From Heptranchias perlo (Eukaryota), in NCBI RefSeq assembly GCF_035084215.1, contig NC_090354.1:12152001-12216000 (forward strand): 64,000 nucleotides of DNA, in the 5' to 3' direction. Numbering within the stretch: the first letter of the stretch is position 1; each line of letters begins with the position of its first letter. Under the pieces are notes generated by a model, which worked only from the letters and a program-made list of their open reading frames with translations, was not told the origin of the DNA and searched no databases. Position numbers and translations under genes: made by a program. Shown piece after piece: positions 5,274 through 64,000 of this stretch.

Positions 5274-7089
5274 GTAGGTTGCAAACTAATTTCAAAAGTT
5301 TATGTCCATTTTAACTTTTTAGATCACTCAGCAAGGTATGATCATGTTTTTTCTTAATAATATGCTAGTGCCATTCTATTGATGATTAAAACCCCAGAGC
5401 CTGGATTTTTCTCCACTAACTGCTTGTTCCTTGGGTGGTTTTCAGGCAGAAAGGGGAAATGAGCTGGGGATCCATCACGCCAAATCCTCACCCTCTTTAG
5501 CAGCCACCCAATTTTCATTGATCATTTCTGACAGATATCAGAAGCGTTTGGACAGGTATATTCAAATGAGGCAGTAAGAATATTGGGATATCAGACGTCC
5601 CATTCTCCAACCTGAACCAACTCAGTTGCAGCCAGACGCCGTGTTGCCCATTCAAAACCGGTGTCCAGGCGGAAAAGGTGGAAGTGGATTATAAGGACCT
5701 AGGAGCCAAATGGCAAGGTTCTAACCTTATTTCTTTTCTGATTTGTGTGATTTTTTTTTGTTGTTGAAACAAAGTTGGATGGTTTAACAGTTGTCTGCCA
5801 TTTGCACCTCCCTCCAAAGAGAGGAAAATAGGCTTCCCAATGGAAATACCTTAGTATATTTTTTCTTTGGAGGAAGAGGAACAACAGAATCAGAGCTAGC
5901 TGCCAGTACTCCCACATTTGAACATATTAGGGTTGCCAACTTTGGTTGGGGGTGTTCCTGGAGGTTTGATCACATGATGTCCGCAAATGTTATCGCGGGC
6001 AGGGAAGATGGGAAACCGAGGGTAGGAAAGAGTGGAATCCAAAGATGGGAGAGGGATTTGAAGGGGGAGGTGGGGTGGGTGGGAACCAGAGGTGGGAGGA
6101 ACTTTGATTCCACCAGTAATTAATATTAACTCAATGAAATTGTACCAATAACTAATAGTAACACTGATAATACTCAAATGTCTCTCATAACCAACAATAA
6201 TACAATAACTCACTGATAATCCATATGTAACTGGTAATATATATGTAACTCAGTCAAAGCTGATCTGTACCTGGACTTCACAAGTCAAAACCTGCTGGCA
6301 CAGACCGACCTGAACCAACCGAGAGATTGCATAGATGGCAGCGGGCTCGGTGTTTGGGGCACTTCTCACAGGGCACATCGTCCTAAACTCAGCTCGGCAC
6401 CAACATTTCTAAATCACTCCCTAGGCCTGGAGTCAATAAAGGAGAGTTTTCATAAAATGATAGAAATTACAGCATAGGAGGAGGCCGTTCGGCCCCCAGT
6501 GCCTGTGCCAGCACTGCCAGTCCTGTAACCCCATTCCATCAGATCCTTTTACATTCCTCCTTTCAAATACTTTTCCCAATCCCTTTCAAATGATGTTCTG
6601 CCTCAATAGCCAATTGTGGTGAAGCACCCCATGATTTACTAGGCCTCAGTTCAAAAACCTTCCTTCTCCCTTCCTCCCCTTTGCTCTTCCAGTGAGAATC
6701 CTCGGTCTCCGTCCCCTTGTTCCCATTCACCCACCGTTTACTGTTTACCCACAGTAAAGTCCCCTCATTTCACTCACCCCTTTATTGGCTGTTCCTCTCT
6801 TAGCGTCACTTCCACTCACCACGTTGCTACTGCTGCTGCTCCCAGCTCTGCTTGAAATGCTGACGCTCACTCCATTCCCAGTCTCCCTCGCTCTCCCCTC
6901 ACTCGAGCCCCAATCTCCTGATGCATATTCCCCAGTTAGCCTCTCCCTCTGAATCCCTGTCACCTGACCCCCATTCCCCAGTCTTCCGCTTTCCCCTGCC
7001 TGAGCCCCTATCCCCCGCTCCCCATTCTCTTGTCTCCCTCTCTCCCCCAAGCCTCCATCCACTGACCCCCATTCCCCTGTCTCCCTCTC

Positions 7090-7840
7090 CATGAATCCCC
7101 ACTCCTTGACCCCTAGTCCCCATCCCCTGACCGTGTCCCCATGCTCTGACTCCTAGTCCCCATCCCCTGACCCCTAGTCTTCTAGTCTCACATCCTCTCG
7201 TTCGCTTGTCCCCCATTTCCTGGCCCCTAGTCTCCATGTTGCCCATTCCCTGACCCCTAGTCCCCATGTCCCCCATCCCCTAGTCCCCCATCCCCTGACC
7301 CGAGTCCCCTATTCCCCATCCCCTGATCTCAATTCCTCCATCTCCTGACCCCTACTCCTCATCCCCTGACCCCTAGGTCCCCATCTCCTGACCCCTTAGC
7401 TCCCCATCCCCGAGCCCCTAGCTCCCCATCCCCGACCCTCATTCGCTATCACCTGACCCCTAGTCCCTATCCCCGACTCCCAGTCCCCCCATCCCCTGAC
7501 TCCCAGTCCCCCATCCCCTGACTCCCATTCTCCCATCCCGAACCCCTAGTCCTCATCCGCTGACCCCCAGTCCTCATCTGCTGACCCCTAGTCCCCATCC
7601 CCTGACCTCTAGTCCCCATCCCCTGACCCCTAGTCCCCATCCCCTGACCCTGACCGCTACTCCCATTCCACTGACCCTTAGTCCACATCCTGTGACCCCT
7701 AGTCCCCATCCCATGACCCCTCACCCCATTCCCTGACCCCTAGTCCCATCCCCTGACCCCTAGTCCCATCCCCTGACCGCTAGCCCCATCCCCGACCCCC
7801 ACCCCCCATCCCCTGACCCTTGTCCCCCATCCCCTGACCA
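7090..7840. repeat. C-rich minisatellite, about 21-bp unit TCCCCATCCCCTGACCCCTAG
   Basis: Many imperfect tandem copies. Explains the low-complexity GMGTRGQ ORFs on the minus strand. Confidence 0.9.
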
Positions 7841-16389: not shown

Positions 16390-16634
16390 GCGGGTAATTT
16401 TAAACCCCAAGAACGGGTGGGTTGTGGGTAGGTGGGAGTTGAAAATAGTTGTTTTTTGGGTCACGACTGCAACCCGGCTGTCTTTTCCGGGTTTAACGTC
16501 GCATGGAAAGGTACAGGCTTCCCACTGGGAATGCAAAGTCCGAAAATTTTGCGGTTGCGACCCAAAAAAACCCAGCTATTTTCAACTCCCACCCGCCCCG
16601 AACCTACCCGTTCTTGGGGTTTAAAATCACCTGC
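16390..16634. mobile_element. MITE with about 80-bp terminal inverted repeats (Harbinger-like ends)
   Basis: GGTAATTTTAAACCCCAAGAACGGGT...GGGAGTTGAAAATAG pairs with CTATTTTCAACTCCC...ACCCGTTCTTGGGGTTTTAAAATCACC. Confidence 0.8.
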
Positions 16635-17017: not shown

Positions 17018-17850
17018 GAAAGACTTACATTTGTATAGCCGCTTATAACATCCCTCAGAAACCTCAAAACTCTTGAGGGGAGATTTTCCTGGTTCGGCAG
17101 CCAGGTGCACTGGATCAGCAAATGTCAGGAAGGCCTGAGGGCACATCTGTGAAGGAACCCACCCAATTTTCATCCGTTTAATGGAGGAAAATTGGGCATG
17201 TTCCTTTACAGGTGTGCACTTCAGCCCGCCCAATTTTCTGATATCCGCTGTGCCCAGGCAATGCAGTGCAGCTGGCCGCAGACACAAGACAGTGATCCCT
17301 TTGGGGTGCAGTGATACAAGTGCCATTTTGCACACAAACAGCAAATGAGATTAATGACTAATTAGTCAGCTTTTGATGGCGTTGACTAAAGGAGGAATGC
17401 TGGTGGGACATAAAGCGACTTCTTTGCTCTGCTTTAAATAGTGGAGCAGGAGCTTTGATGTCCACCTGTTCCGACACATCGGGGGTTGGCATAACATTTC
17501 ATTTTATGGTACAGCACCTCCAACAATGCGATAGCCCTCAGTATCGCACTGGAGTGTAGGCTTAAATTGTGGGCAAAATGCTTTGAGAATCTACGCCACC
17601 CTGCAGGGCCATCCTTGCAGCAGGCATCTCTTTAGAAAACTGCCCACGATTCTTTTCTTCAAAGAAATCAATGGATATCAAATCTCAGGTAACATAGCCA
17701 TGGTTTTCTGACAAGCTGTGCTCAAGGCCCTGCTGGTGATATAGGGTCTTGAGAAATGTCGCTCTGTATTCTGACCTCCTGAAGCAGCAGCCGAGCTTGA
17801 ACCCACAATCTTCTGATTCAAGAGGCCGAGTGTCCTGCCACTGAATCAAA
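17018..17850 (-). mobile_element. Deu-domain SINE interrupted by small insertions
   Basis: 3' tail at 17018-17075, Deu-like core at about 17320-17570, tRNA-like head (CTTGAACCCACAATCTTCTGATTCA...CCACTGA) at about 17790-17850. Confidence 0.55.
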
Positions 17851-22390: not shown

Positions 22391-25300
22391 TGAGCAGACT
22401 AATTAATTTTTTTTGGTAAATGAATAAGTTAAATTCCATTTTTGTTACATGGGATTCTGGGACTTTTACAATGTTTTGAGAATTGCATTCCAAAATCATG
22501 GCTGTTTATAATTAGGCCCAATGGATTATAGTGACTGAATAAGTCAAATTTTGTTTTTATTACACGGGATTTTTGAATCTTTCCAGGATTTTTACTGATA
22601 TTTTGGGGATTGAATTCTATGATTCCATCCGTTTATTCTTCCTAATAAGGAGTTAAATCATAAGTGAGTTTCAGCCAGCTTCACAAACGATGATATTTAT
22701 CATATCTTACAGTTAGTTTGCCTTTCTATTTGTAAACATTTTTATAACTTTATTTTTAAATACATTTTTATGTTTTTATATTATAAACTTGCCAAAATGA
22801 AAGAAACTCCTTAACTCCTAGACTGAATGTATAATAGTATAATATTTCATGGTGTCACAAATTTAATTACTTTGGCATATGCCAATAATGCCATGTTGAT
22901 TATTCTATTTCTACTACACATTAGTGTGTTCACTTAAAGAAAATATATATAAAGCAATAAATAAAGGTATAAATGGAGTTATGACCCTCATCACCTGAGG
23001 TCACATGACATTATCAGTATTACTTTTGAGTCACAGAACCTCATCACTAGGGAGGTCCCATGTCTGATAGTGATCACTACTACAAAGTGAAAAGTGTTTT
23101 TGTTAGTACTGATAATACTGCAACAGGGAAGCAATCTCCTACAATAATGCCATCTTTAGGTTGAAAGTTCCTATTGATTAACAGGTCTACACTTGGCAGA
23201 CTGGACCCGTGGTTTTCTGTCCTACATCAGTTGTCACAATGGGAACCATACCATGAGCAGCCATTTCCTGGAGGAAAAATAATCTCTGAAAAACGGTGAC
23301 CTTGTAGATTGGATAGATTTCCATTGATGAGATAAGGTGATGCAGTCAGCATAAAAATGCTTTTCTTTTCCACGGTTGCATCTGTGGTAAATCAGGATCA
23401 ATTCCATGGGACCTTGTGTAATATCTTTGTACACAGATTTCTTCATTAATTTAGAAGATTTTCTTAAGAATCCGATGAAAAATAAAACACTGGTTAAAAG
23501 AAAAAGAGTGGCTATCTTGATTCAAATTTGATTGCCGATTTTCTGGTGGGCAGTTGTGATTATCTTAAAGAAGGCAGTCGTTCCAATGAAAGTAAAACAG
23601 AAATGATGTGCGGTTGCCTCCATTTTTTCTGTTGTTTTATGCAAAAATGTGTAACTTTTCTGTGGTTAGGAACTCTTTCCCATACATTATGCTATAAAAG
23701 GAAAAGTCTGAGATAAAGCAGAGTGTTTCCTGCTGTGGGTTATAGGTTAACAGTATTGATTCATCAAGGCTTTCTGGCTAGCAATTGTGAAATGCCTGGT
23801 TACGTAGGGTTAGAGAGTTGTGGCATACCTGTTGTCATGGTCACTATAAATTACTCAATCTTATAACGTGAATATAATTTACCATTCAGATAGATGTATG
23901 ATGTACAGATGAAATCGTTTTGACAGGGTTTTGAAACTGATACAACCATCTTATAAAAATTATGTGGGATCTGAATTTCAGCTGCCATCTTTGATATTCA
24001 GCGACGCACGGAGTTGTACAGTAACATCACTATGGTAACAACTTAGTGCAGCATCATTACATGTTCAGCATTCCCCCATATCCCCCCTGCCACGAACAAG
24101 AAGTTGATGGAGGGAAGCAAAGGTCATGCAATTACAACCAACTGCTAAGATACATGAATATATAATACCATCATCATTTGAGAACTGAATGGCGTGATTA
24201 ATGATAGCAATTCATAAGTTCACCTTTTTAAGTCGAATGACCATTCTTCATCTGGTAATGTGATTGTTATGAGGTAAATACATCATTATCCATCTGCGGA
24301 TTCAGAGCTGGTATTAACTCTTGATAGTGTAGCCACGACATGTCAACAATAATACAATATAAAACCTGACAGACATCGTAGTCTTGTCTTTCAGCTACAG
24401 ATGAATAGGATCCACATCACATTAAGCGGTTCAAAATTATATCATATATCAGATTGGTTGAGCACAACAGTCAGATCCTGCTTCATGAAGGCTTGAATCA
24501 CATAGAAAACCCGTCAGGATTCTGGCTTATGATCATTATCCAGTGATCCTGCTGGGAAATATGTGTGAGAAGTTGTTGGGTATGTCAAAAATAGCTCCTT
24601 GAGTGAAGCACTGGGAGACTCTACCCCAGTTTAAATCAGCAGAGGTGGGGAGAAAGTGTGGGGAAAAAAAATAACAATTTTAAAAGCAAATTCAATTCGA
24701 CAGCTTTGAGACACATTTTGAAAACAGTCACATTCGCTGGTACAGCAGCAATTATTCTCTTCAGGAGGTGGCACTGTTCCCTAACAATACCATAGTTCAA
24801 GTGTTTGTAATGACCATTACGGAGTAAAAAAAGAAGCTAGTTAATTGTTGGGTGGACTCCAGATGGCTCACTAACACAGGAATGATTTAAACCTGGAAAT
24901 TAAGATGAGCAACGTAATCGTATGAAGACTTAACATGCTAGCACCAAATTCCTCTCTGATATGTTAATGGAGATGTTAACCCCTTTATTTTAAATAGATT
25001 CATGGTTCCCTTAAAATAGCGGAGAGCAATTTGATAAAATTAGGCTAAGCCTTCGTATTATAACATCATTCATGGTAATTTCCAGATTTTATTCTCAATT
25101 AACAATTATATTTGTAACTACTAGTTAATAACAATCAATGTAACTTTCTGTATAATGAACTTGTAACAATATTACATCTCTTCTGTTTTCAATAAAAGAT
25201 ATGATTGACGAAGCAATGAGTTTGTTTATTTCTAGAAGATGTCAATCATCATTGAGGTACAAATAGCTTAATCCATGCGATCACACCCATCTAGTGACCT

Positions 25301-25997: not shown

Positions 25998-26218
25998 TGA
26001 TGATGTGGAGATGCCGGTGATGGACTGGGGTGGACAAATGTAAGGAATCTTACAACACCAGGTTATAGTCCAACAGTTTTATTTGAAAATCACAAGCTTT
26101 TGGAGATTATCTCCTTTGTCAGGTGAGTGAGCTGACGAAGGAGATAATCTCCGAAAGCTTGTGATTTTCAAATAAAACTGTTGGACTATAACCTGGTGTT
26201 GTAAGATTCCTTACATTT
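25998..26218 (-). mobile_element. Penelope-derived palindromic element (pLTR fold-back plus tail)
   Basis: Inverted arms 26036-26122 and 26132-26218; about 36-nt unpaired tail 26000-26035; 12-bp TSD TATTTAATATAG at 25986 and 26218. Confidence 0.85.
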
Positions 26219-27514: not shown

Positions 27515-28469
27515 TGTAAACAATTTTACAATACCAAGTTATAGTCCAACAATTTTATTTTAAAATCCACAAGCTTTCGGAGGCTTCCTCCTTCCTCAGG
27601 TGAATGTGGAACTGAAATCCTCGAACCTATTGCATTTATAAATCACAGAACAATGCCTGGTGATTACAGAGAGTCTTTTCAACTGCCCGTTGCCAAGGCA
27701 ACCAAAGTGTTCAGACAGATAGGTGTTACCTACAGGCCCACCGAATATACAAACGGCCAGAACTAAAAAAACAGATGATATGGAGATGCCAATTAAAAAA
27801 ACAGAGCTAGAGAGGTAGAAACATAGAAACATCCGGAAGGAAAAGACAGCAATTGACCCGTTATATTAAAAACAGATAACATTTGTTCGCTGGTGGGGTA
27901 ACGTGTAGCGTGACATGAACCCAAGATCCCGGTTGAGGCCGTCCTCATGGGTGCGGAACTTGGCTATCAATTTCTGCTCGACGATTTTGCGTTGTCGAGT
28001 GTCTCGAAGGCCGCCTTGGAGTACGCTTACCCGAAGGTCGGTGGCTGAATGTCCTTGACTGCTGAAGTGTTCCACGACTGGGAGGGAACCCTCGTGTCTG
28101 GCGATTGTTGCGCGGTGTCCGTTCATCCGTTGTCGCAGCGTCTGCATGGTCTCGCCAATGTACCATGCTCTGGGGCATCCTTTCCTGCAACGTATGAGGT
28201 AGACAACGTTGGCCGAGTCACAGGAGTATGAACCATGTACCTGGTGGGTGGTGTCCTCTCGTGTGATGGTGGTATCTGTGTCGATGATCTGGCATGTCTT
28301 GCAGAGGTTACCGTGGCAGGGTTGTGTGGTGTCGTGGACACTGTTCTCCTGAAAGCTGGGTAATTTGCTGCGAACGATGGTCTGTTTGAGGTTGGGTGGC
28401 TGTTTAAAGGCGAGTAGTGGAGGTGTGGGGATGGCCATAGCGAGGTGTTCGTCGTCATTGATGACATGA
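27515..28469 (-). mobile_element. Penelope-like retroelement 3' fragment with GIY-YIG endonuclease domain
   Basis: The part of ORF 27866..28738 inside the element reads C-x4-CxxC linker, NVVYLIRC...YIGET...LRQRMNGH...EHF...E..LI..F.T...GLN. pLTR at 27515-27865; 19-bp near-perfect TSD CATG(T/A)CATTTTAATACAGG at 27496 and 28470. Confidence 0.93.
27567..27603 (-). ncRNA. Minimal type I hammerhead ribozyme motif in the Penelope pLTR
   Basis: Minus strand reads TCAC-CTGAGGA-A-GGAGG-AAG-CCTCC-GAAA-GC-TT-GTGG. Confidence 0.75.
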
Positions 28470-28629
28470 CATGACATTTTAATACAGGGGTACTGAAAGC
28501 ATAACGTACTGTGGGCTGCTTCTGAGGCAGCATCCAGCATACAGTTAATCAGGCATTCACTTATTTCACATGTGCTATCCCAGCTACCATTGGAATAGGA
28601 AACACTGCATTTATCGGTCCTTGGGATGT

Positions 28630-33300: not shown

Positions 33301-35478
33301 ATGCAAAACAATCTTTTAAAAAAGCCAATCATTTCTTTTTTTTATCATCTCTGACCTTGTAGAGAACCCTGTTAACCTCTTATTGAGCTCAGGGTTCACA
33401 GCAATTAGACCTCATGGCTTTAAAGGGCACAGCTCGAACTAACATGTGCATTACATGGCATAATGTTCCTGTCCTCTGCACTGACACTACAGAGTGCACA
33501 TCAGGTAACTTTGCACCCTATTTACACCACACAGCCTGTGTTGATGCAAAGCTGATCTATAGCAAACTTAACTGCACAGTCGAAAGCATGAGAGAAGCAC
33601 CAGCATATGTCAATATTTTTATTGTAAAACTTTCATAACAAAATCAAACATTACAAGCTATACAATGATAAGAAACTTAATCGTCATCATTTATTTCAAA
33701 TACATTTTTATTCTTGTCATGTACTTCATATCTAGCCTTAAACAAAAACACAATCAATAAAAATAAATAAGAAACACTTCAAGATCTTGCCATGCTCCAA
33801 GGGTCTAAATTCAAGTATTTGAGAAATCACTGTCCAAATATTAATCCCGTGGAATACGACCCAGAGAGGTCACTGGACTGCACCCTTCTCTTTTAAATAG
33901 GCAAAGCTGCTCTCTAATTTCACAATCGTTGTGAATGAGAAGGGGTGGGAACCATTGCTATTTTCAGTTGTATGCTGCAGATGGGACAGATGCATCACTA
34001 CTGCCCCATTGCCTATTAGCTTCCCCCTTAGGAAGCTATGGACCAAGTACATGTAACTCTACTGCAGTCACCTTTCACATCTCTTGTGGGACAAAATGGA
34101 TGGACCACTAACACAATGTAGCTTATAGCCCCAATTATAGCCCCAGAGCAGGAATTGGGGGGGTGGGGTCCTAAGTGCATGGCGATCCGTCCAGGGGACG
34201 GGGTCAGGCTGCCATTGGAAACCCACGGAAACAGTCCCCAGTAAGATAAGTGAGGATGGGGGGGGAGGATTCAGTAAGGTTCACGATTGGGAGGGGGGAT
34301 GAAGCCCGGAGCAGGGGAGGCCCAAGGTATCCTTGTGGGGCGAAAAGGAGCAAGAGTGCTCCTCCTGGCCCACAAGGAACCTATAAAATGTTTTTAAAAA
34401 TGAACTAACCAGGGCATCCTGTGGCCAAGTCGCTGCCTGCTGCCAGCTTTCACTGTTGGGTATGAGACTGTACAGGCCTTAGTCGGGCCTACTGTTAAAA
34501 TAGCGTGCACGCCCCAATATCGTCATGAGGACGTGACTTCACCATTTAAATTAGGACCCCCACTCCTCTGAGGCAGGTGGCCTTCCCATGCCTGAATCCA
34601 GGTAAGTTAAGATGGGGGGGGTGTTGGCAGGAACACTTCGGGAGCCCCCCTCCTCCACTGCTATATTAAGCCCACCCCCGCAGCGTGCATTGTTCCCTCT
34701 GAGCAGGTGGGGTTAACATCAGGCCTATATTCACACATTATGGAGATATTGGGCAAATTACCCCCAAACTCCCATCATCTCTATCCCCTAATCCTAAATC
34801 CTCCATCCTTACTAACCACCAGCCAAGAGACGCTTAATAAAAAAAAATTATTACTGCCTCGGGTCTTAATCAGCTACCCAGCATTATGGTCAGTGAACCT
34901 CTGGTGAGTTAGTGTCGATTATGTACAGATAATACCACTGTGATCCACTTTAAAAGATATAGGCCACCGAGGAAATTAAAATGATCCAAAATGGGTACAG
35001 TTGGCCTCAAAACGAAATTTCAAATTGCCCGAATGGACCATTCCAGACTGCCACTTCCAGTTCACAGTTTACAGCAAATAGTAATAATTTAAAAACATTT
35101 CTACAGCATTCCTCTGTCACATTATTCAACAGAGGTGTTAACTCATTTAAAATAAATGTTCTAATGTCTCTGTGAAAGTAATGGACAGAGGACTATCATA
35201 CAAAAGAATTAAGCTTTTGTCCGTTGTTATTACCAACAATCATGTCTAGCTATCACATGGCGTTGACACATCACTGAAAACACTTTAGCCCGACTTCATT
35301 CTATCTGTGCTTTCTGCTAGGCCTCATAAAATTTATGATAAAAGTGAGCTTTGAGCAGAAAGCTGTGCAGCAGCTTTTGTTTAGTGTACATGAACCAGTT
35401 AAATGTAGACTGTTTTTGTTTAAATTCCTCTGACTATCTGATTATCTATTTCCTGAGATTATGTTTCACTTCAGAAAT

Positions 35479-35990
35479 CTATAGAAGCTTCTTTTCCTCT
35501 CGGTTTGTAATTTGTGACACACAGTACGGAACGAATGCCACTGCTGCCAGAGGCACTGCAGCACTTTTACAGAAAGACAATAAATAAAATAGGAGTTCTG
35601 TCTGCGTCGGGGGCTTCACCGAGTCAAACAGGTGCAGGACGACCAACGACGCCACAATACAACTTACTCTGAAGTTGAACTGCTGGCCCCTCTTTCCTTT
35701 GCAGCTTTCTGCATACATGGGGGAGTTGAGAGCTAATCCCAATCCAAACAAGGCTCCCAGGTTCCTGACCAGTCCAGCGAAGGGAGTGCTGTCGATGTGG
35801 ATCCACTCTGCTCGGGCGCACCATCTCTGGGCTTTCTCCATTGACCACAGCAGGTCCACTCCCAGCACTTTCAACAGCAGGTAAAAGCCCAGAGCGAAGG
35901 AAAACAGGAAGAGAGTGATCTTCAGATACTTCTTGAGGGTTGCGTTGTAGATTGCATTAATTCGACCAAACATTTCGGCCACAACCATTC
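35479..35990 (-). CDS. G6PC1: Glucose-6-phosphatase catalytic subunit, copy A, exon 5
   Basis: Acceptor at 35991-35992; GMVVAEMF...[13 protein letters not shown]...FCKSAAVP...EEKKLL*. C-terminal KKxx ER-retrieval motif. 512 nt. Confidence 0.95.
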
Positions 35991-36738
35991 CTGAACGCAA
36001 AATAGTACAAAAGTTAACTCTGAGGTGAATCAGTGAAGTTCCTCAAATCAGTACAAAGCCTCATGTTTATGAATTAATTCGAAAAGCTTGTGGAAGAAAG
36101 ACCTGTATTTATATATTATCTTCTCGCCAAGGCCACTATTTTTTGGTGACTGAATAAGTCAAATCCTGTTTTTATTACATTGGATTAAAACTTTTCGGTG
36201 ACTTTTATAGGCATTCAATTCTGTGGCCAAGAAATTCGACTTGTGCCCAAAACGGGTGCAAAGTTGGCGGAATCATGGCCCGAATCTAATTCGGCTTTAA
36301 ATACTGCCGTTGAACTACAGGCATCATATCGATGCCCCACTGCAGCTCATCACATGGGATGGGGGTGGGGGGGGGGGGGTGGAGAGGGGGAGGGGCAGGG
36401 TAAGGGAGTCGAGAAATTGGCAGCAGGTTGGATCTGGGGGGAGAGAGGCGATCCTTGGGGTGCCTCGAACATGCAGGCAGCAGGCTGGAGTTTTCAGGGG
36501 TCTTGTTTCAGGGACGAGCATTAGACGGTTGGATACAGAGAGGAGATGTATTCTATATTAATTCTAATCATAAAAATATAATCACACTAACTGTAAATAT
36601 CTAGTTATGTCTTTATTCAATACTTAAAATTAACAGTTATAGGTTGTACATAACATGGTATAATTAGCATTATTTATGATCTAGCACAATTTTATCTTTA
36701 ATTGAATTTTGCGATCTGTAAATTATGTTTTCACTGAC

Positions 36739-36854
36739 CTGAAATGACTCCCAGGAAGACCTGATGAGGGAAGTGAGTGGCTACAAATACTCTGGATACA
36801 CAGACACAGACCTGTATTACCCAGAATACCGTCCAAAGTACAGCACGCAGACAC
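36739..36854 (-). CDS. G6PC1: G6PC1 copy A exon 4
   Basis: CLRAVLWTVFWVIQVCVCVSRVFVATHFPHQVFLGVISG, with catalytic R170 and H176. 116 nt, AG/GT boundaries. Confidence 0.95.
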
Positions 36855-37874
36855 CTGTAACAGAAGGGGGAAACTTCAGAACAAAGCAACGGTGAGTGTT
36901 TAATTAAATCTATCGGTCCAATTTTAACTCTGGGCCAGTTTTGGGCGGGTGAGTACTGGTGTAAGTTAGAAACTCATCCACTGCTCCAGAAATGAGGCCT
37001 GGGGTATTTTAACTCCCAAGCCTCCTTTAAATCCCGTCAGTCAACTTCCCACATTTTCCGGCTGGGACCTCCGAGGCCAGGTAGGATCCTCATTTCAGAT
37101 GCTGACGGACCTGCTGTGTATTTCCAGCACTTTCTTTTTTATTTCTGAACTATAATTATTGTGGAGATAGGTCATGAAGGAATGACTGTTCCTGATTTTC
37201 CATCCTGTATTAGCCCAGCTAGCAACTAGAGAGACATTCCCACTGGATGCAGCTGAGGTCTAATATTGGTCAAAGGATGGGATTTAAACCTAAGATCCCA
37301 ATGTGGGATTCAAGCTTTGCACCACTGCTCAGGTAGAGGCCCCACCAACAGGAATCACAAAAAAAAAATCTCAAGTTACTCCCTGAAACAAAGTCTAGTA
37401 TTTCCTTAAGCAATGCATTATAGAATTACATAGAATCTATAGCACAGAAACAAGCCATTCGGCCCATCTGGTCAATGCCAGTGCTTATGCTGCACACAAG
37501 CCTCCTCCCACCCTACTTCATCTAGCCCGATCAGTATAGCCTTCTATTCCTTGCTCCCTCATGTACTTATCTAGCTTCCCCTTAAATGCATCTATACTAA
37601 TCGCTTCAACTATTCCTTGTGGTAGCGAGTTCCACATTCTAACATTTATATATATATCTCTTATATTTGTGGGCCTTCGTTTTAGACTCCCCCACAAGTG
37701 AAAACTTGTAACTATAGGTAATTGTGATTAAGCTGTACTGTGCATGTCGATCAGTACTCTCATTCAAATTCAGACAATCATGCTTATTTAGAAAGTAACT
37801 ATTTCTGCTCGGGGCTTTGTATAGCCAGAGATTGGAGATCTCAAGTATCAACAAATCCAGAATGTGAGACTCAC

Positions 37875-37980
37875 CGATTTTGGACGCAGTGCTGCTTATT
37901 CTGAAATGTGCAGGTCAGAAATGCTGTCACCATCACATACCAAACCCCAGCTGATCCCATGGCATGTCCCGAGGGGCTCC
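37875..37980 (-). CDS. G6PC1: G6PC1 copy A exon 3
   Basis: GSPSGHAMGSAGVWYVMVTAFLTCTFQNKQHCVQNR (H119). 106 nt, AG/GT boundaries. Confidence 0.95.
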
Positions 37981-38100
37981 CTGAAACGGACAAGGCTTGG
38001 CATCAACTTTACGTCATCAGGAACGCTGAAGAAAATCTAATCTTTGGTTTATTAAAATCTACAATTTCTATTATTTGGAAGTGTGCTGGTTTCTCAGTAC

Positions 38101-38210
38101 CTGGCCCTGTTTCACAGGTGATGGGGTATTGCTCTAACACAGGAACAGATGAGTTGCCATAATAGGACGTTTCATGAACCCACCAGTAAGGTCTCTGGCC
38201 AAATAATATC
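38101..38210 (-). CDS. G6PC1: G6PC1 copy A exon 2
   Basis: [36 protein letters not shown] (R83; N96 sequon NSS). 110 nt. Confidence 0.95.
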
Positions 38211-39079
38211 CTGCAAAAAAAAATGAAGAATAATTTTCAGAGGTGAGGTGGGGAGAAACGTTTTTTTTACACAGCGAGTTGTTATGATCTGGAATGCACT
38301 GCCTGAAAGGGTGGTGGAAGCAGATTTCAAAAGAGAAATGGATATGTATTTGAATTGGAAAAATTTGCAGGGCTCTGTGGAAGAGTAGGGGAGTTGGACT
38401 AATTGGATAGCTCGTTCAAAGAGCCTGCACAGGCTTGATGGGCCAACTGGCCTCCTTGTGTCCAGTAAGATTCTATGATTCTATGAACAGACTCACTGTC
38501 TGTAATAAAAAATAATTCCCTTCAATTTTTCACCTGAAGGTGGTACTAATACTGGTGTTTGGTTGCATTGTTGCCCAAATGGCCATTCTTCATGAATGAG
38601 CATGGGCAGCGAGGGTCAGCGGGTTATTCTATCGCGGAGTTTCACAGCTGAGCTGGCTCCTTGCCTCACCCCACATCCGCACATACACACTTTCAAGTAA
38701 ATGCTGTCTTTGGAATGCATACAAAAAAAGCATCTACCAGAAAGGGATATATTATAGAAAGGGCATTTTTAAGAGGGGGGGGGGGTCCAGATTATTTCCT
38801 GGCCCCACAAAAATAATATCAAATTTCCTTGGCTGGGCCCCCTCTCCACTATCGTGGTGTATGACGCACACTCCAATCATTTCCAACCTAATCTGACAAT
38901 CAGGGCCTATGACCCCAATTTGCATATCGAAATGGGCCTGCCACCTGAAACAGGCAAGCGTTTCGGGCCCCTTTCAAAATGGCACCGGCCGCATCATCGG
39001 GCTTAACGGACCCCATTTTGAGGCCGTTACCACCCTGTTGCCGCCGGGCAATACAAGTTAAAATGGACCCTCTAGGTTG

Positions 39080-39460
39080 AGACATCTCATGAAATTCTAA
39101 CAGGACTAGACAGACTAGATGCAGGGAGGATGTTCCCGATGGCAGGGGTGTCCAGAACCAGGGGTCACAGTCTCAGGATACGGGGTATGCCATTTAGAAG
39201 AGATGAGGAGAAATTTCTTCACTCAGAGGGTGCTGAACCTGTGGAATTCTCTACCACAGAAGGCAGTGGAGGCCAAGTCATTAGATGTATTCAAGAAGGA
39301 GATAGATATATTTCTTAATGCTAAAGAGATCAAGGGATATGGGGAAAAAGTGGGAACAGGGTACTGAGTTAGACGATCAGCCATGACCATTTTGAATGGA
39401 GGAGCAGGCCCGAAGGGCCGAATGGCCTACTCTTGCTCCTATTTTCTATGTTTCTATGAA
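39080..39460 (+). mobile_element. CR1 LINE 3' end
   Basis: SRTRGHSL..MRRNFFTQRVLNLWNSLP, then a TTTCTATG tail. Confidence 0.85.
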
Positions 39461-40322
39461 CTAGAACACACTGACTTGTCATTTCAGGATCAGACTTGAT
39501 GCCTGGTGCGACTTGCAATCTGAACTCCTGGTGTGCGGAAGAGACAGTGTTGATTGACTTTACACTTGATTCATGACTTCTGATATAGCTGCTTAGGAGT
39601 GGAGCTGTAAGGCATGTGACAGCTGTAACTGTCAGCACCCGTGGGTCGCACGGATCGAGAGAGGATCAGGAGTCAGAGGTGTGGCTGCTCTCTCTTCACA
39701 TCCCTGCGCATAAGTTCCAACTCAGAGGAAGCTGCCAGGAGAGAGTGGGGGGGGGTGGGAGATTGCTATTTCTAGTTCCGAGATCCTCAGCGCTATCTGT
39801 GTTCTCCGCATTTACCACAGTAGAATGACTGGACATCTAACATACCAAAGTGGCAATAACATTTTATTGTACGCCAATAAGGGTCCAAGAAACTTAAACA
39901 AATCAATATCAGATGATCAAAAAAAAGAAACATGCATCCTCCATAAGAGGAGTCAACACGCATTTGTGTATTTGGGGGGACACATATGATAGGAGAATGG
40001 GACATGGACACAGCTGAAGCTGAGGAGAGTTCCATGAGGAAACTGATATGGAAGGGTATGCCTTACTTTAAGCTGAGAATAGATAAGTCAGTTACAGAGA
40101 GGGAAAAAAACAGGCATTTTAACCAGTAACTCGGGCTTACAGCTGACAGGGAAAGTTGGAGGGACAATAATTACCAGGCAGTCAGCATTGTCAAGTGTGA
40201 CAATGCAATGCACACTGCTCCTCAGTCCTACCCACCCAATGTTGCAGGGCAATCAACGCCTAGAATTGAAAGCCCTTTAAGGCTCTTACGACATTCGACA
40301 GAGTTTCTCAGAAAATACTTAC

Positions 40323-40552
40323 CATTTAAAGATGAGGTTGAGCCAGTCTCCAATGACTGCCACCCAAATGAGTTTGACACCCACCACTTCACACAGGTGG
40401 AACCAGATGGGAAAGAAAACAAAAAAAGTGTTTCTCAGGTCCGCAGCAAAAGAGATAAAAGTGAACCAGCTCTGGGAGTCCTTGTAATTCAGCTGTAGAT
40501 ACTGCACCAGTTCTACCCCGGAGCTGTGGAGCAGGTCCATCCCAGCGTCCAT
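40323..40552 (-). CDS. G6PC1: G6PC1 copy A exon 1
   Basis: [13 protein letters not shown]...[18 protein letters not shown]...[12 protein letters not shown] (K76). 230 nt, donor GTAAGT. In-frame upstream ATG at 40561. Spliced total is 1074 nt = 357 aa. Confidence 0.95.
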
Positions 40553-40659
40553 TCTCTGCATGTTCAGAAACTGTCAAAGAGTCCAGCGAAGATGCCTGTC
40601 TCTCTTTGTTCTTCTCTTTGCCTCTTCTCAGTTTGTTGTCTGAAACTCTCTTCTATGGG

Positions 40660-40830
40660 TCAGTTATATACAACCACCAGCATAAACATGTGTGCAAAGA
40701 GTGATCTTTGGACTTGCAAACTTGACCCAAAGTCAGTGAACAATGTAACATTATTTCAAGCTGACGCAAGTGTGTTTAGAACATTCGCATTGAAAATGCC
40801 TTCGGTATCTGGCTTATTGATTCATCAAAT
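40660..40830 (-). promoter_or_regulatory. G6PC copy A promoter
   Basis: TATATAA 40664-40670; DR1/HNF4-type AGTCCAAAGATCA 40702-40714; CRE-like TGCGTCA 40762-40768; ONECUT-like AATCAATA 40815-40822. Same order as in the copy B promoter. Confidence 0.75.
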
Positions 40831-43313: not shown

Positions 43314-43543
43314 AAAATCAAAATAATGCAGATGCTGGAAGTCTGGAATAAAAGCAGATAATGCTGGAAATACTCAACAAGTCAGGCAGCATCTGTGGAG
43401 AAAGAAACAGAGTTAATGTTTCAGGTCGATGACCTTTCGTCAGACTGACGAAAGGTCATCGACCTGAAACGTTAACTCTGTTTCTTTCTCCACAGATGCT
43501 GCCTGACTTGCTGAGTGTTTCCAGCATTTTCTGTTTTTATTTA
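43314..43543. mobile_element. Near-perfect fold-back element of a second Penelope-type family, with hammerhead cores at its centre
   Basis: Arms about 43347-43443 and 43445-43541; 13-bp TSD GGAAAATAAACTC at 43301 and 43544. Core CTGACGA-A-AGGTC-ATC-GACCT-GAAA-CG-TT at 43445-43473. Confidence 0.85.
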
Positions 43544-44880: not shown

Positions 44881-47047
44881 GACCTCAGGCCTTGATGAGC
44901 TGTTAAATATATTAGCCAGTGGCTCGTAACACAGCCCTTGTTTCTTTTGGTGCTCTAAGGGTGAATGGCATTAGGTAGAGCAGCCCAAGCGGAATTCCTG
45001 CTGTCAAGAGGGAGCTCACCAGTGCAAGGGCAGAAAATCCCAGTAGTGTTGCAGTGGGGACACTGCACATGCACCAAAAGATCCAGTGAGGGAACTTAAA
45101 GGGGCAGAAGCACCCAGACCATCTGAAAGAAGATTCCCATTTTAACTTTTTGGCCAAGGTAGGTCTCTGGGGTTGACTGCAGGGAGAGGAGGCTGCTACA
45201 AGACCCTCTCCCTGCATTTGGGGAACTCTGGGCAGTTACTGCAGCTCCCAGGGTCCAACACTGCCTTTGCCACGGTTGCCCCGGGAGGTGTTAGTTATTA
45301 GGGTGGAAGCTGCTAATTGCACGTGGCGGGCAGGGAATAGCGGGCAATGCCAATCCTGATGTGAGCAGGGAGTGGGGGGGGGGAAGGGAAATCCCAGTCA
45401 GGGTGGTGAAGTGACTGTAGATTTGATAGCCTCGTATTCCTGCCATTTCCGCCACAGTCCTGCCTGAATTCTGGCGAGATTGTGACGGTAAATCCTCCCC
45501 ACCCCCCCCCCATCACCTTTTACTTTGATACAAGATACAATAAGATACAATAGATAGAAAGATAAATAAATACTTGGACATGACAGACAGGCAAGGCATG
45601 GGTGTACATCTATGATTCCCCACTAGGTGAATTTACAATCTTAACCAATGCCAACGCAGGGAAGCATGAAGCAGAGAATAGTCAGCCTGTGAAAAATCTG
45701 TGGACCAGTGGTCCTAATCTACTGTCATGGGCCTTCTAGCAATTGACTACAGAGTGGGATTAACAGAGGCCTAGGAACCGATCTACAGCCTGTACTCTCA
45801 GCTGGGGCTGTACATAGTGCTAGGAAATTAAAGGAGGGAAAGAAATTAATAAAACAAAAATACCACAAAAAATAAAAATACATGAAAAGTAAAACAGCAT
45901 CATTGCTTCCAAAATATTTATTATAATAAAACCTTGAAAACAAAACAATTACTCAATGACATGCACAGTGAAAAAGAACAAAATGGTGGCAATTTGTTAA
46001 TCTAGCTAATTGGTCTTCTAAAACACTTAACAATTGTTTTCTCCATGATAAAAACCACCTATATAAAATAAATAATCATCCACCCACAGACAGAAAAAAT
46101 GCTTTATCCCATTGTAGATGTAGTGCATTTGAGATATGTACATTTTCAAATCCTTGTATTACAGCACAAGTTTTGAATAGTTGGATCCCTGTAGAGAAGA
46201 AGCTCTTTACCAGAATTATCCCGTAGTGAGTAAAGTGTTCCCTTATCCAATTACTCATGTCAAACAAGATGTGTAGAACATGAACTGGTATGCAAGCAGT
46301 ATATCCTTTTTTTCCCTCACTGACTCATGCCCCACAGCTCCACAGGGACCAATATGCCTCCATTACCTTACCCATCTGGCCCTTCTTTCATGTGTAAGCA
46401 TATAGATTGAGCGGCAGCAGGTTATTCGATCATGGGGTGAATCACCTGCTGAATACGATCCTATCCTCATCCACACATGCATACTCCAGCTGCTTCAACA
46501 TAGAATAGGGATTGTACGTGAGACCTGTCTGATCTGAACGGGTCTGTAACACACCATGTGCACAGTTTCTCACTGGGTTATCAGGGGAGCTGCAAGTGTT
46601 CCCTTTAAACAAATAGCTTTATTGATACGGAGCCTATTGAAGGCAAACATCGGAGTACAAAACGTAACCCTTTATGCTCTCATTTTACCACACAGTAATA
46701 TGCAGGGTGACTGATATCTAGAGGGTTGACTTAGATAATATGCAACTGAATACAGGCACAGGATTACAAAACAAACAGGACTAATTAAAAATGCAACTGC
46801 TGGTCTGTGATGTAAGCAGTTCTTTCTCAGGAAACATCCGATGCATGTAATTTTTCTGGATCATCTGGGTAGTCACATGTCTAACAAAACCATTCTTTTC
46901 AGTGGGATCTGCTAGCCCTGTACCTTTGTCAGATTTGTTGAATTCAGATTCTGGCCCAAAGTACAACTAACCAAAGTCAAACTGATTTGATTCTTAGAGT
47001 GACTTCACTAAAAGCCCTTAACGTACAAATATTTCAGTTCTAGAAAT

Positions 47048-47559
47048 CTATAGCACTTTTTTCTCTTGTTGGTTCATAACGTGTGATGCAGAGAATGGAA
47101 TGATTGCCACGGCTGCCAGAGGCACTGCGGTACTTTTACAGAAGGATAATAAATAAAATAGGAATTCCTTCTGTGTTGGGGGCTTCACCGAGTCAAACAG
47201 GTGCAGGACAATCAACGACGCCACAATGCAACTTAGTCTGAAGCTGAACTGCTGGCCCCTCTTTCCTTTGCAGCTTTCTACATACATGGGGGAGTTGAGA
47301 GCTAATCCCAATCCAAACAAGGCTCCCAGGTTCCTGACCAGTCCAGCGAAGGGAGTGCTGTCGATGTAGATCCACTCTGCTCGGGCGCACCATCTCTGGG
47401 CTTTCTCCATTGACCACAGCAGGTCCACTCCCAGCACTTTCAACAGCAGGTAAAAGCCCAGAGCGAAGGAAAACAGGAAGAGAGTGATCTTCAGATACTT
47501 CTTGAGGGTTGCGTTGTAGATTGCATTAATTCGACCAAACATTTCAGCCACAACCATTC
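47048..47559 (-). CDS. G6PC1: G6PC1 copy B exon 5
   Basis: GMVVAEMF...QQEKKVL*; KKxx motif. 512 nt, acceptor at 47560-47561. Confidence 0.95.
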
Positions 47560-48349
47560 CTGAACATAAAATAGTACAAAAGTTAACACTGAGATTGTAA
47601 AGACCAAGAAACCGTTGTGAAGTTTTGATATTGAACAAATATGGAACTCCTCTAGTCATTGACTTATAATTTATGACGAAGATTATTTGAGAAATGTATA
47701 GATTTAGTGAGTTGTGCTGAACCCAGTTGCTCGCAAATTAGCCAATGTCCTCTATCTTTAGCAGCAAAAATTGCATTGATATAGTGCCTTATCACGCTGG
47801 TCAGAAACATCTCAAAGCCATTTGCTACATTGAATTACTTTGAAGTACAGTGACTATTGTTACGTAGGCAGGCACTTTGCGCACAAGATCCCATAAACAA
47901 CAATGAGGTGAATGACCAGTTTATCCATTTTTGATGCTATTGACTCAACAATCTAATAAAACAAAGACTAGAGAAAAAAATATATCTGGTTTGGAATAGG
48001 ATTAAAGGTTAATTGGATCAGTGTAGTTAGAAATCATTAAACAGGCAAAATGGCTGCTCTGCTGCTGTGGTCAAGTAACAGATGACAAAAGTAACCTGTT
48101 GAAATAATGGAGATGTAAGAATAGACAAATATTCTGGAATATATGTTTTGATTCATTACTTTTAGTGGTCAGGGAAATTTTTTGCAGAACTTTCCATCAG
48201 GAGATTAAGTAAGTGGGGCAGAGTCCATGATAGGGCACATTGCTTGTTTTGGTCTGGGTCAAGAGTGGGCTTGATGGTTGAATGGCCATGTTTTATTATT
48301 GTAAACAATTTTACAACACCAAGTTATAGTCCAGCAATTTTATTTTAAA

Positions 48350-48388
48350 TTCACAAGCTTTCGGAGGCTACCTCCTTCGTCAGGTGAA
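48350..48388 (-). ncRNA. Minimal hammerhead ribozyme motif (sense to the G6PC copy B pre-mRNA)
   Basis: Exact reverse complement of 48660-48698. Confidence 0.75.
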
Positions 48389-48659
48389 CGATGTGAAATC
48401 TAAACTGGTCATTCACCTCATTGTTGTTTATGGGATCTTGTGCGCAAAGTGCCTGCCTACGTAACAATAGTCACTGTACTTCAAAGTAATTCAATGTAGC
48501 AAATGGCTTTGAGATGTTTCTGACCAGCGTGATAAGGCACTATATCAATGCAATTTTTGCTGCTAAAGATAGAGGACATTGGCTAATTTGCGAGCAACTG
48601 TGTTCAGCACAACTCACTAAACCTATACATTTCTCAATATATCTATACATTTCACATCG

Positions 48660-48698
48660 TTCACCTGACGAAGGAGGTAGCCTCCGAAAGCTTGTGAA
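48660..48698 (+). ncRNA. Minimal type I hammerhead ribozyme motif
   Basis: TTCAC-CTGACGA-A-GGAGG-TAG-CCTCC-GAAA-GC-TT-GTGAA: 5-bp helix I, intact core, predicted cleavage after CUU (48693). Confidence 0.8.
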
Positions 48699-49694
48699 TT
48701 TAAAATAAAATTGCTGGACTATAACTTGGTGTTGTAAAATTGTTTACAATTGTCAACCCCAGTCCATCACCGGCATCTCCACATCATGTTTTATTATGTT
48801 CTTATTTATAGTTAATGGATGCAACAATTGGAAGATTGAGTCGTGCTGAGGTAAACACTTTCTGTTACTGGCCTTATAACAGCATATGGAGTATTAACAG
48901 GAGCTCACTGAGCTGCCCCCACCCCCTGCCATTGTTTAGTAAGTTAAGGCAGTGGGTGGCTGGGCCATAAAAAACAGAGAAGGCCCAGATTCAAACCCCA
49001 ATCTGTGCTGAGTTAGCTGACCTCAGCTGGGATGTCAATAGGGCCACTTTACTTGGTTTCAGTGTTCCATGTGCGATAGGAGGAAATTGACCAGGGTTCC
49101 TGCTCCTGGTCATTATCCAACGACTCATGCTCGAGTGGTAGTGTATGGATGAGGACAGGATAGGGCTCAGTTGTGATGCAAACTGGCAGTCAAAGCTTAT
49201 TGTTAAGGCTCATAAGTTAAGAATGGTCATTTGGGCTAGGTACTGGTGGGTCTCCAGTGCCCATGGAACCCTGTCCCAGCAAGGAGTCAACACCTTCAGG
49301 AAAGGAGGAAGGGATAACATTGACAGTAAAAAAGAAAAGGAGAGGAAACAGTCTTATAAAGCCAGGCCCCATTCATTGAAGTAAGGCTCAAGAATAGTCC
49401 TTAGAACAGTAAGAAGTATATTACGAACATACGAAATTGACAGGCAGGAAAAGACCAGCTTGTCCATTAAGCCTGCCCCACACCATGATGGCCTCACATC
49501 TTCATGAAATCTTTCCAGGGACAATACTACAACACTTCTTTTTGTAAATAATATCTCAAATTATAAATTACAAATTTCCTTCATAGCTGGAACAGGATGT
49601 TGCACTGTTGTGTAAAAATCCTTCAATTCAGAATGAATAATTTGACGACTGCATAGAAATAGCACAAGAAATATTACACAAGTGCATTAACCAC

Positions 49695-50462
49695 AGCAAC
49701 GCAGAAAAGTGTAAAGTGATACATTTCGGTAGGAAGAACAAAGAGAGGCAATATAAACTAAAGGGTACAATTCTAAGAGGGATGCAGGAACAGAGAGATC
49801 TGGGGGCGCACAAACCGTTGAAGGTGGCAGGGTAGGTTGAGAAAGCGGTTAAGAAAGCATACGGGATCCTAGGCTTTATAAATAGAGCCATAAAGTACAA
49901 AAGCAAGGAGGTTATGATGAACCTTTATAAAACACTGGTTCGGCCACAACTGGAGTTTAGTGTCCAGTTCTGGGCACCGCACTTTCGGAAGAATGTGATG
50001 GTCTTAGAGAGGGTGCAGAAGAGATTTACTAGAATGATTCCAGAGTTGAGGGACTTCAGTTACATACATGGACTGGATAAGCTGGAATTGTTCTCCATAG
50101 GGCAGAGAAGGTTGAGAGATATTCAAAATCATGAAGGGCCTGGACAGAGTATATAGAGAGAAACTGTTCCCATTGACGGAGGGGTCATAGATTTAAGGTG
50201 ATTGGCAAAAGAACCAAAGGCAACATGAGAAACAACTTTTTTACACAGCGAGTGGTTGTGATCTGGAATGTACTGCCTGAGGGGGTGGTGGAGGCAGATT
50301 CAATCGTGGCTTTCAAAAGGGAATTGGATAAGTACTTGAAGGGAAAAAATTTGCAGGGCTACAGGGTGGGGAGCGGGACTAGCTGGATTACTCTTGCAGA
50401 GAGCCAAGACAGACTCGACAGGCCGAATGGCCTCCTTCCGTGCTGTAACCTTTCTATGATTT
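49695..50462 (+). mobile_element. CR1 LINE 3' fragment
   Basis: ORFs 49914..50156 and 50198..50530; closely similar to 12390-13233. Confidence 0.9.
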
Positions 50463-63104: not shown

Positions 63105-64000
63105 GTAAGTATTTTCTGAGAAGTTCCTTGGAGTGTTATTAAAGATCTCATTTAGAGCAATGGAATAGACTTTAATACATGACAGATTGCAGACTGGGAC
63201 TATTGTAAATATAATTGCTTTAAGTTCTAAGACCTGGGCACTTGTGACTGAGGACAAATAAATTCTTTTTTTTATTTCAATCTTAGTTTTAGAAAATGCT
63301 AAACGTTTATAACTTAAAATATTTTAATGGCATCTTTTTCTTTTGTCTTGGTCTGTCTATAGCCCACTTTACCCTGTGCTAAGGGGTAGGCAGACAACTG
63401 ACCTCTAGATAACTGGCGGTGTTGCTCTATATCTTGCTGCCAGGGGGTCAGGGGTGGGAATAGAGAACCAACTCTGACTTTCCTGAAGAAAGTGCTTGGC
63501 CTTTACGACCTCTGTGAGGCACCTTCCCTGATGGCACGCTAAGATTCAGAACATATTTTATGGAAATTTGCAGCTGCAGAAAAGAACTCATCAGTCCATA
63601 CACAGCATATTGGAGCTCTGTCACTCTGTCACTCTGCACCATCTGAGAATCAATTATATTTGTAAATATTGTAGTAAATATTCTTCCATTTTTAATTTAT
63701 GAAGATATTAAGATAAATTATAGATAATATTAAAATTATAAACCTTTCTTTGAACTTATATCTATACGTTTTTTTCTTGGTCTTTTCTCTGGTTCATAAA
63801 TCTTTTTAAGTCTAATATTTATGTCTTATTGTTCATTTTTTAACATTTGGACTTTTTTTGAGGAAACAAATTATTACTTGAGAGCAGCTTCAGGTGTTTA
63901 TGTGTCAGTTCACATTTCATGGTGTTTGGACAGCATCCAAAGCAGACAAGCTCAAAAGAATTCTAATCTGATCTTACTCCTGGTTGAGAAGAGTGTTTTG

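Follow-up and report, generated by a model that had tools for sequence, protein, structure and literature searches.

How Penelope-like elements finish integration and form their inverted arms is an open question, and the later integration steps were left unvalidated by the 2024 in vitro study of a purified Penelope-like protein, at least in the available part of that paper (PMC11167929). A copy that bears on this question lies in a G6PC1-like gene of Heptranchias perlo, within a 64,000-nt stretch of contig NC_090354.1 (hereafter the window). Its two pLTR arms stand head to head and enclose an inverted copy of DNA from beside the insertion, so that it must be asked how host sequence came to lie between them. 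An initial annotation had called this arrangement a Penelope fold-back. The reading favoured here, with a probability of roughly 0.55, is that the arms are two cDNAs, each primed at one side of a single staggered cut, and that the spacer is a repair patch templated on local DNA in the same event. The features involved are the following.

27515-28474, minus strand: related one-armed copy linking a pLTR to a GIY-YIG endonuclease frame, used for family assignment; it has a 14-bp target-site duplication (TSD).
47051-47559, minus strand: last coding exon of the G6PC1-like host gene (phmmer against solved G6PC1 chains, E 2e-72, residues 188-356).
47560-51060, minus strand: last intron of the G6PC1-like gene (GT...AG), with splice sites read from the sequence.
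47680-47923, plus strand: donor segment, with core 47687-47923; 47680-47683 is the presumed landing word of a slip.
47760-47945, no strand assigned: decayed SINE-like repeat, partly within the donor, with 67-69% matches to three other copies in the window.
48287-48299, plus strand: left TSD copy, the last 2 nt of which also fit the arm.
48300-48400, minus strand (element sense): tail-less pLTR arm, with a hammerhead motif at 48350-48388.
48401-48637, minus strand: captured inverted copy of 47687-47923, with no microhomology found at its left joint.
48638-48648, minus strand: filler of 3 scrambled bases and an 8-nt re-copy of 47696-47703, which makes a direct repeat spaced by 20 nt.
48649-48653, no strand assigned: 5-nt microhomology common to the arm end and donor 47691-47695.
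48649-48787, plus strand (element sense): tail-bearing pLTR arm, with a hammerhead motif at 48660-48698 and the tail at 48751-48787.
48785-48797, plus strand: right TSD copy, the first 2-3 nt of which also fit the element end.

Donor and insertion both lie inside the last intron of the host gene. A loose end in run X5, which is guessed to be RNA, matches the end of the preceding exon of this gene copy, and on that basis the intron carrying the insertion is still spliced. The two-armed copy (48298-48787) contains no ORF and is a dead product with no sign of function. The host gene belongs to a G6PC cluster (35461-40780, 47029-56499 and 62859-63122) made up of two tandem minus-strand genes and the first exon of an inverted third copy. 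This exon is 99% identical to exon 1 of the left gene, and the tandem genes are 96% identical over the exon 2-3 block, including its short intron, and 89-92% identical in exons 4 and 5. As read from the sequence, this pattern suggests gene conversion or recent duplication. No homolog of the donor was found in the paralog's intron (best local score 11). Elsewhere in the window, a degenerate tandem-repeat array of about 1 kb occupies 6872-7839.

All 102 bases of the arm at 48298-48399 are complementary to those of the arm at 48649-48750; past this match, the right arm continues for 37 nt, which form the tail. A single TSD (48287-48299 and 48785-48797) encloses the whole unit, as previously annotated; it is exact, 10-13 bp long and 13 bp at most, and A or T occupies 11 of its 13 bases. 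The outer 2-3 bases of the TSD are also compatible with the element end and the inner 2 with the arm, which would have allowed a brief pairing of both target ends with the element RNA.

The spacer is identical to the reverse complement of 47687-47923 at 235 of 237 bases (BLAST E 2e-117). The differences fall at copy positions 48622 and 48601, or donor 47702 and 47723, respectively, and the match grows to 244 nt (47680-47923) if a 3-base scramble is allowed. The initial annotation had described about two mismatches, a passage from unique sequence into a SINE and a donor some 370 bp from the insertion, all of which are borne out. The donor enters the decayed SINE-like repeat at about 47760, contig depth across it goes from 38 at 47705-47765 to over 11,000 at 47827-47948, and the gap between donor and TSD measures 363 bp. 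The 12-mer at 48641-48652, reported as a re-copy of 47692-47703, occurs once per strand in 64 kb, and its other site is indeed that one. The microhomology between filler and arm is revised from 4 to 5 nt.

The filler can be read as a 20-nt back-slip between two AGAT(T) words. The right joint has 5 nt of microhomology and the slip has 4 nt, none being found at the left joint, and filler and spacer together place 248 nt between the arms. Base 48400 is of ambiguous origin. If the element sequence upstream of the arm continued with the spacer's letters, a microhomology would be hidden at the left joint and the argument from direction would be weaker.

The donor is taken as the original sequence because it is in place beside the exon in two related species, at about 88% identity (41 differences in 337 letters and 43 in 393). 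Among the differences listed for these relatives none falls at 47702 or 47723, though neighbouring ones from the same contigs appear, and the filler keeps the donor base at 47702. On these grounds, both substitutions appear to lie on the copy and not on the donor. In both relatives, the contig match breaks off at 48286, the contigs extend 117-119 letters past this point, and coverage picks up again near 48847, a pattern that yields no clean empty site.

Read depth in this species points the same way. The stretch shared by donor and spacer collapses to one contig of run X1 with a depth of 89, against 33-48 for its single-copy neighbours, and this roughly twofold depth fits two copies only, the donor and the spacer. 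Occurrence of the same spacer in copies elsewhere, a concern of the initial annotation, is not apparent, since donor and spacer account for the X1 depth. A contig of depth 35.7 spans 48571-48675 with no differences, carrying both private changes and the filler. It bridges the joint between spacer and filler with 67 and 38 letters on either side, and reaches 27 letters into the arm at the joint between filler and arm, short of the 31-letter bridging rule. None of the listed contig pieces bridges the left joints by 31 letters or spans the whole unit. Run X1, from which this partial read support comes, may be the source of the assembly itself.

With the donor ancestral in two relatives and the depth fitting two copies only, the capture is local, in agreement with the local origin first proposed; it is also real and young. 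The locus displays what is expected of a locally templated insertion: the donor is near the target, intact and older than the copy, and microhomology and slippage mark the switch. Arms and patch appear to be of equally recent origin, with 0 differences in 102 bases and 2 in 237, respectively. No empty allele occurs among the 15 joints listed of 289, and no spacer-less one was seen. The single TSD around arms and spacer and their similar youth support the view that the patch was made within the same insertion event. Copying during integration, one of the routes named in the initial annotation, is supported; the choice it left between local DNA and nascent RNA as template is beyond what one locus can settle.

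The family of the element was assigned through the one-armed copy at 27515-28474, to which the arms are 93% identical over 90 nt. The frame in this copy matches Pfam GIY-YIG at E 5.5e-4, below the curated cut-off, and its Atlas neighbours are GIY-YIG clusters. A C-terminal GIY-YIG with a CCHH motif beside the pLTR, a trait of EN+ Penelope-like elements, is found here and is absent from the copy at 48298-48787. Inverted pLTR arms with a 30-40 bp tail at one end are a defined EN+ feature in the accessible part of PMC8557442, and correspond to the 102-bp arms and 37-bp tail of the present copy. The short TSD at an AT-rich target is a further EN+ trait, and four other copies checked have TSDs of 12-14 bp. 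From its sequence, the pLTR is predicted to contain a hammerhead motif with core CUGANGA/GAAA, stems I and II and a palindrome in the position of helix III; the same layout is described for the minimal hammerhead of Penelope-like pLTRs (PMC4209133, available text). At the gathering score, Rfam matched no family in the 64-kb window, hammerhead included.

The copies examined are all 5'-truncated before the telomerase-like RT that lies upstream of the endonuclease in EN+ elements, and the family label is drawn from the linker motif. The related frame has a CX4CxxC linker before its endonuclease. A CX2-5CxxC zinc-finger linker is present in Neptune and absent in Penelope/Poseidon, according to the portion of PMC8557442 that was available, and the Neptune-type label follows from this distinction. 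The arms thus probably belong to a Penelope-like family that is Neptune-type by its endonuclease, the linker motif alone pointing to Neptune or Nematis. The name Penelope used in the initial annotation is accurate in the sense of Penelope-like, but not in the strict sense of Penelope/Poseidon, as those elements lack the linker that the related copy possesses.

The arm subfamily (48315-48802) is represented at at least 99% identity by 9,571 contigs in this species (run X1), compared with 11 and 8 in two relatives (X12 and X13). Both relatives share the tail region though the arm subfamily is scarce in them. These counts suggest a recent burst in this species, leaving a very abundant and young subfamily. 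One 24-nt arm motif had no matches in metagenome, viral and prokaryotic contigs. The window holds four two-armed elements with hammerhead cores, at 26000, 26396, 43315 and 48298, whose centres are 5 bases, the end of the element's own ORF, 1 base and the host patch, respectively; host DNA was therefore captured in one of the four. Between 25800 and 28474, four Penelope-like insertions are found within 2.7 kb, one old and decayed and three with TSDs of 12-14 bp. The window also contains older palindromic elements (16390-16634, 17138-17220 and 24889-25089), which are 66-80% self-complementary, lack a hammerhead core and are possibly MITEs.

Under the favoured reading, the element protein would cut both strands of the AT-rich site about 11-13 nt apart, and both target 3' ends would be extended on pLTR RNA, each after pairing over 2 nt, with a distance of 37 nt between the two starting positions. 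A purified Penelope-like protein is able to cleave and extend both target strands in vitro, and begins synthesis at two neighbouring positions on the RNA, which correspond to the tail ends (PMC11167929, available part). The anatomy described there is matched at this locus, where one cDNA would start at the tail end and the other 37 bases further in. Both cDNAs would then halt at nearly the same base. Having the same sequence, they could not anneal to each other and would have to be end-joined. Other copies of the family carry fillers of 1-13 nt at their arm-to-arm joints in 11 of the 12 cases listed of 188 in run X1, from which the arm joint can be regarded as normally an end-joining scar. What remains of the term fold-back is the head-to-head arrangement of the arms; the self-priming it implies is less likely than priming from both target ends.

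The position at which the arms end is the commonest of the 15 fold points listed of 289, with 11 contigs against 1-2 for each of the other 14. Arm ends of two hammerhead-bearing families (26000-26218, 43315-43541 and 48298-48787) cluster just upstream of or at the hammerhead start. Loose ends are also seen at 48387 and 48661, in 62 and 43 contigs of run X1 with low agreement. The clustering could mark the 5' end of the RNA or an RT stop. Both arms end in or beside an initiator-like word, and the copy at 27515 has a TATA-like box about 27 nt upstream, an arrangement that occurs 17 times in 127,910 positions. A cap origin is conceivable for the G at base 48400, but as no more than a lead: when best aligned with the closest relative, this G comes out as element-encoded, and the other relative has C there. 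Hammerhead cleavage was rejected as the cause of the joint, given that the predicted cut lies intact within the arms, whose ends are about 45 nt upstream of it.

The patch would begin with the end of the tail-arm cDNA pairing by 5 nt with the donor minus strand at 47691-47695. After the addition of 8 donor nt, ending in AGAT at 47703, the cDNA would slip back 20 nt to the AGAT at 47680-47683. Following this slip and the 3-base scramble, about 240 nt would be copied towards the cut, up to 47923, and the new end would be joined to the other cDNA without microhomology before the gaps are filled. The template in this scheme is the donor minus strand, removed on resection of the left break end. A flap or released fragment of this strand would be the simplest template, with a replication gap, or the strand displaced in an R-loop, as further candidates.

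The details of the right joint are consistent with such a start. An anchored match of at least 5 nt to the cDNA end occurs at 14 of the 6,946 strand positions scanned around the site, which makes a 5-nt overlap unlikely by chance. Choice of the landing site by best homology is not supported in view of its rank of 6th-8th among these 14 in duplex energy, two nearer sites (48105 and 48178) having been passed over. Landing was probably set by the availability of single-stranded template and not by a homology search. All copying errors, namely the slip and the two substitutions, are confined to the 44 nt next to the microhomology end, and the remaining 200 bases contain none; the two substitutions fall within 37 nt of one end with P about 0.05, calculated post hoc. 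This bunching of errors fits unstable initiation at the microhomology end, followed by processive copying. Priming of one end by microhomology and capture of the other by end joining is described for local templated insertions in yeast (PMC11724301, in part). Patches made by polymerase theta are typically up to about 30 nt, against some 240 nt here, which speaks against a firm assignment of the enzyme.

The strongest alternative keeps the two-ended insertion but has the RT jump from the element RNA to nascent G6PC intron RNA, of which it would copy about 240 nt. This is possible, though clearly less probable than a DNA template. Template switching between RNAs is described for L1 (PMC11702581, accessible sections). 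The polarity of the presumed template is that of the host pre-mRNA, the sense strand of the gene, and the intron appears spliced in run X5. However, polarity would agree by chance half of the time, and a DNA template of the same strand would suit no less well. The cDNA landed internally, by way of microhomology, and the copy begins 120-127 nt in from the 3' splice site; the end of an excised intron is accordingly rejected as the start of the template. The event would also have to take place in the germ line or in the early embryo; G6PC is active mainly in liver and kidney and is not known to be a germ-line gene. The start within the intron and the expression of the gene are the reasons for favouring DNA, but the mechanism rests on a single locus, which cannot decide the matter.

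Another alternative separates patch and insertion in time: the element would have inserted as a near-perfect palindrome whose centre later broke and was patched from a local template. A cut hairpin tip would leave both arms ending within 1 nt of the same element position, as they do here. Yet this position is the commonest listed fold point in the family, so the symmetry needs no second event, and spacer-less palindromes persist in the window at 26036-26218 and 43347-43541. The equally young look of arms and patch also speaks against a later break, which is regarded as improbable.

Slightly less probable still is the formation of the whole unit as one continuous strand. Either the tail-arm cDNA would have primed on itself after copying the donor, or the tail-less cDNA would have snapped back on the resected plus strand to copy leftwards from there. 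Self-priming has been proposed for inverted Penelope junctions (PMC3846280, available text), R2 cDNA is seen to snap back on itself or on target DNA close by (PMC11371274, in part), and resection of the left end would expose the plus strand. Self-copying, however, predicts a C on the element strand at 48400, where G is found (one base of evidence), and a separate cut would be needed to stop at the tail boundary with the TSD intact. A snap-back that began at the left arm would have 0 nt of pairing to start from, and the slip would have to follow a 240-bp anchor. Finally, an assembly or library artefact in the form of a fold-back chimera is very improbable: although none of the listed contigs spans the whole unit and run X1 may have supplied the assembly, two private substitutions and a unique joint lie on a contig at the depth of the single-copy flanks with no differences, the shared part has about double depth and the TSD is exact.

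Locally templated patches have published precedents in L1, in LINEs of zebrafish and in R2, and a rotifer provides a case of host DNA lying between Penelope repeats; the comparisons below draw on the accessible portions of the papers cited. In a set of about 3,600 L1 insertions, 22 had templated patches of less than 250 bp, with donors usually within 15 bp (bioRxiv 10.1101/2024.08.27.596794). Three L1 insertions that contain sequence from near the site are also described, as are pieces attributed to cleaved single-strand flaps (PMC11702581). As in these cases, a non-element segment of less than 250 bp was copied from near the target with the TSD kept. L1 inversion junctions, like the present joints, are closed by end joining with microhomology or are near-blunt. 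In contrast to the typical L1 donor, the donor here is 363 bp away, and while the twin-primed parts of L1 mostly abut in the RNA, both arms here represent the same 100 nt.

The zebrafish LINE ZfL2-2 provides a second parallel, with junction filler templated on flanking DNA and thought to stabilise the join (PMC4760211, PMC4245944); its filler is several nt long at the junction of element and host, whereas 248 nt lie between two element arms here. In R2 snap-back during PRINT, the 3' end of the cDNA similarly primes DNA-templated synthesis on itself or the nearby target before joining (PMC11371274), but these are engineered single-cDNA insertions at rDNA, without a second arm or tail. Local inverted insertions at yeast double-strand breaks share the microhomology-primed end, the end-joined other end and iterative slips (PMC11724301). 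Unlike the present copy, the yeast fold-backs are 2-150 bp long, adjoin the break and involve no retroelement cDNA.

In Adineta vaga, unrelated sequence is found between Penelope pLTRs inside a TSD, along with an inverted pLTR and tail, and the capture has been interpreted as transfer to new sites, mobilised in trans between direct pLTRs (PMC3846280); in the accessible text, no donor is followed to the vicinity of the new site and the junction is not resolved. Such transduction from a distant locus is rejected here, the donor being 363 bp away without a flanking pLTR and the depth fitting two copies only. In the literature consulted, which included few subscription papers, no paper was found to follow a Penelope inter-arm spacer back to sequence next to the insertion, or to apply twin priming to Penelope arms. 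The phenomenon is one known for LINEs, of which this copy is a young and well-preserved example in a Penelope-like element: the capture works like LINE templated insertion, with an unusually distant donor and a clear slippage scar.

Being young, the copy keeps every joint at base resolution and favours two-end priming followed by end joining in the unsettled completion of Penelope-like integration. As a tentative and somewhat doubtful generalisation, Penelope-like elements, left with two identical cDNA ends that cannot pair, would have to be bridged, and the RT or host repair would routinely find the bridge in nascent RNA or single-stranded DNA no more than a few kb from the cut. The abundance and youth of the family in this species make a census of spacers a cheap test of DNA against RNA templates, and such a census would also show how often these elements duplicate neighbouring sequence. 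If the generalisation is true, the spacers would be a fossil record of how the unsolved second-strand step of the element is completed, and in genomes crowded with these elements, local inverted duplications would arise from them steadily and would so far have gone uncounted.
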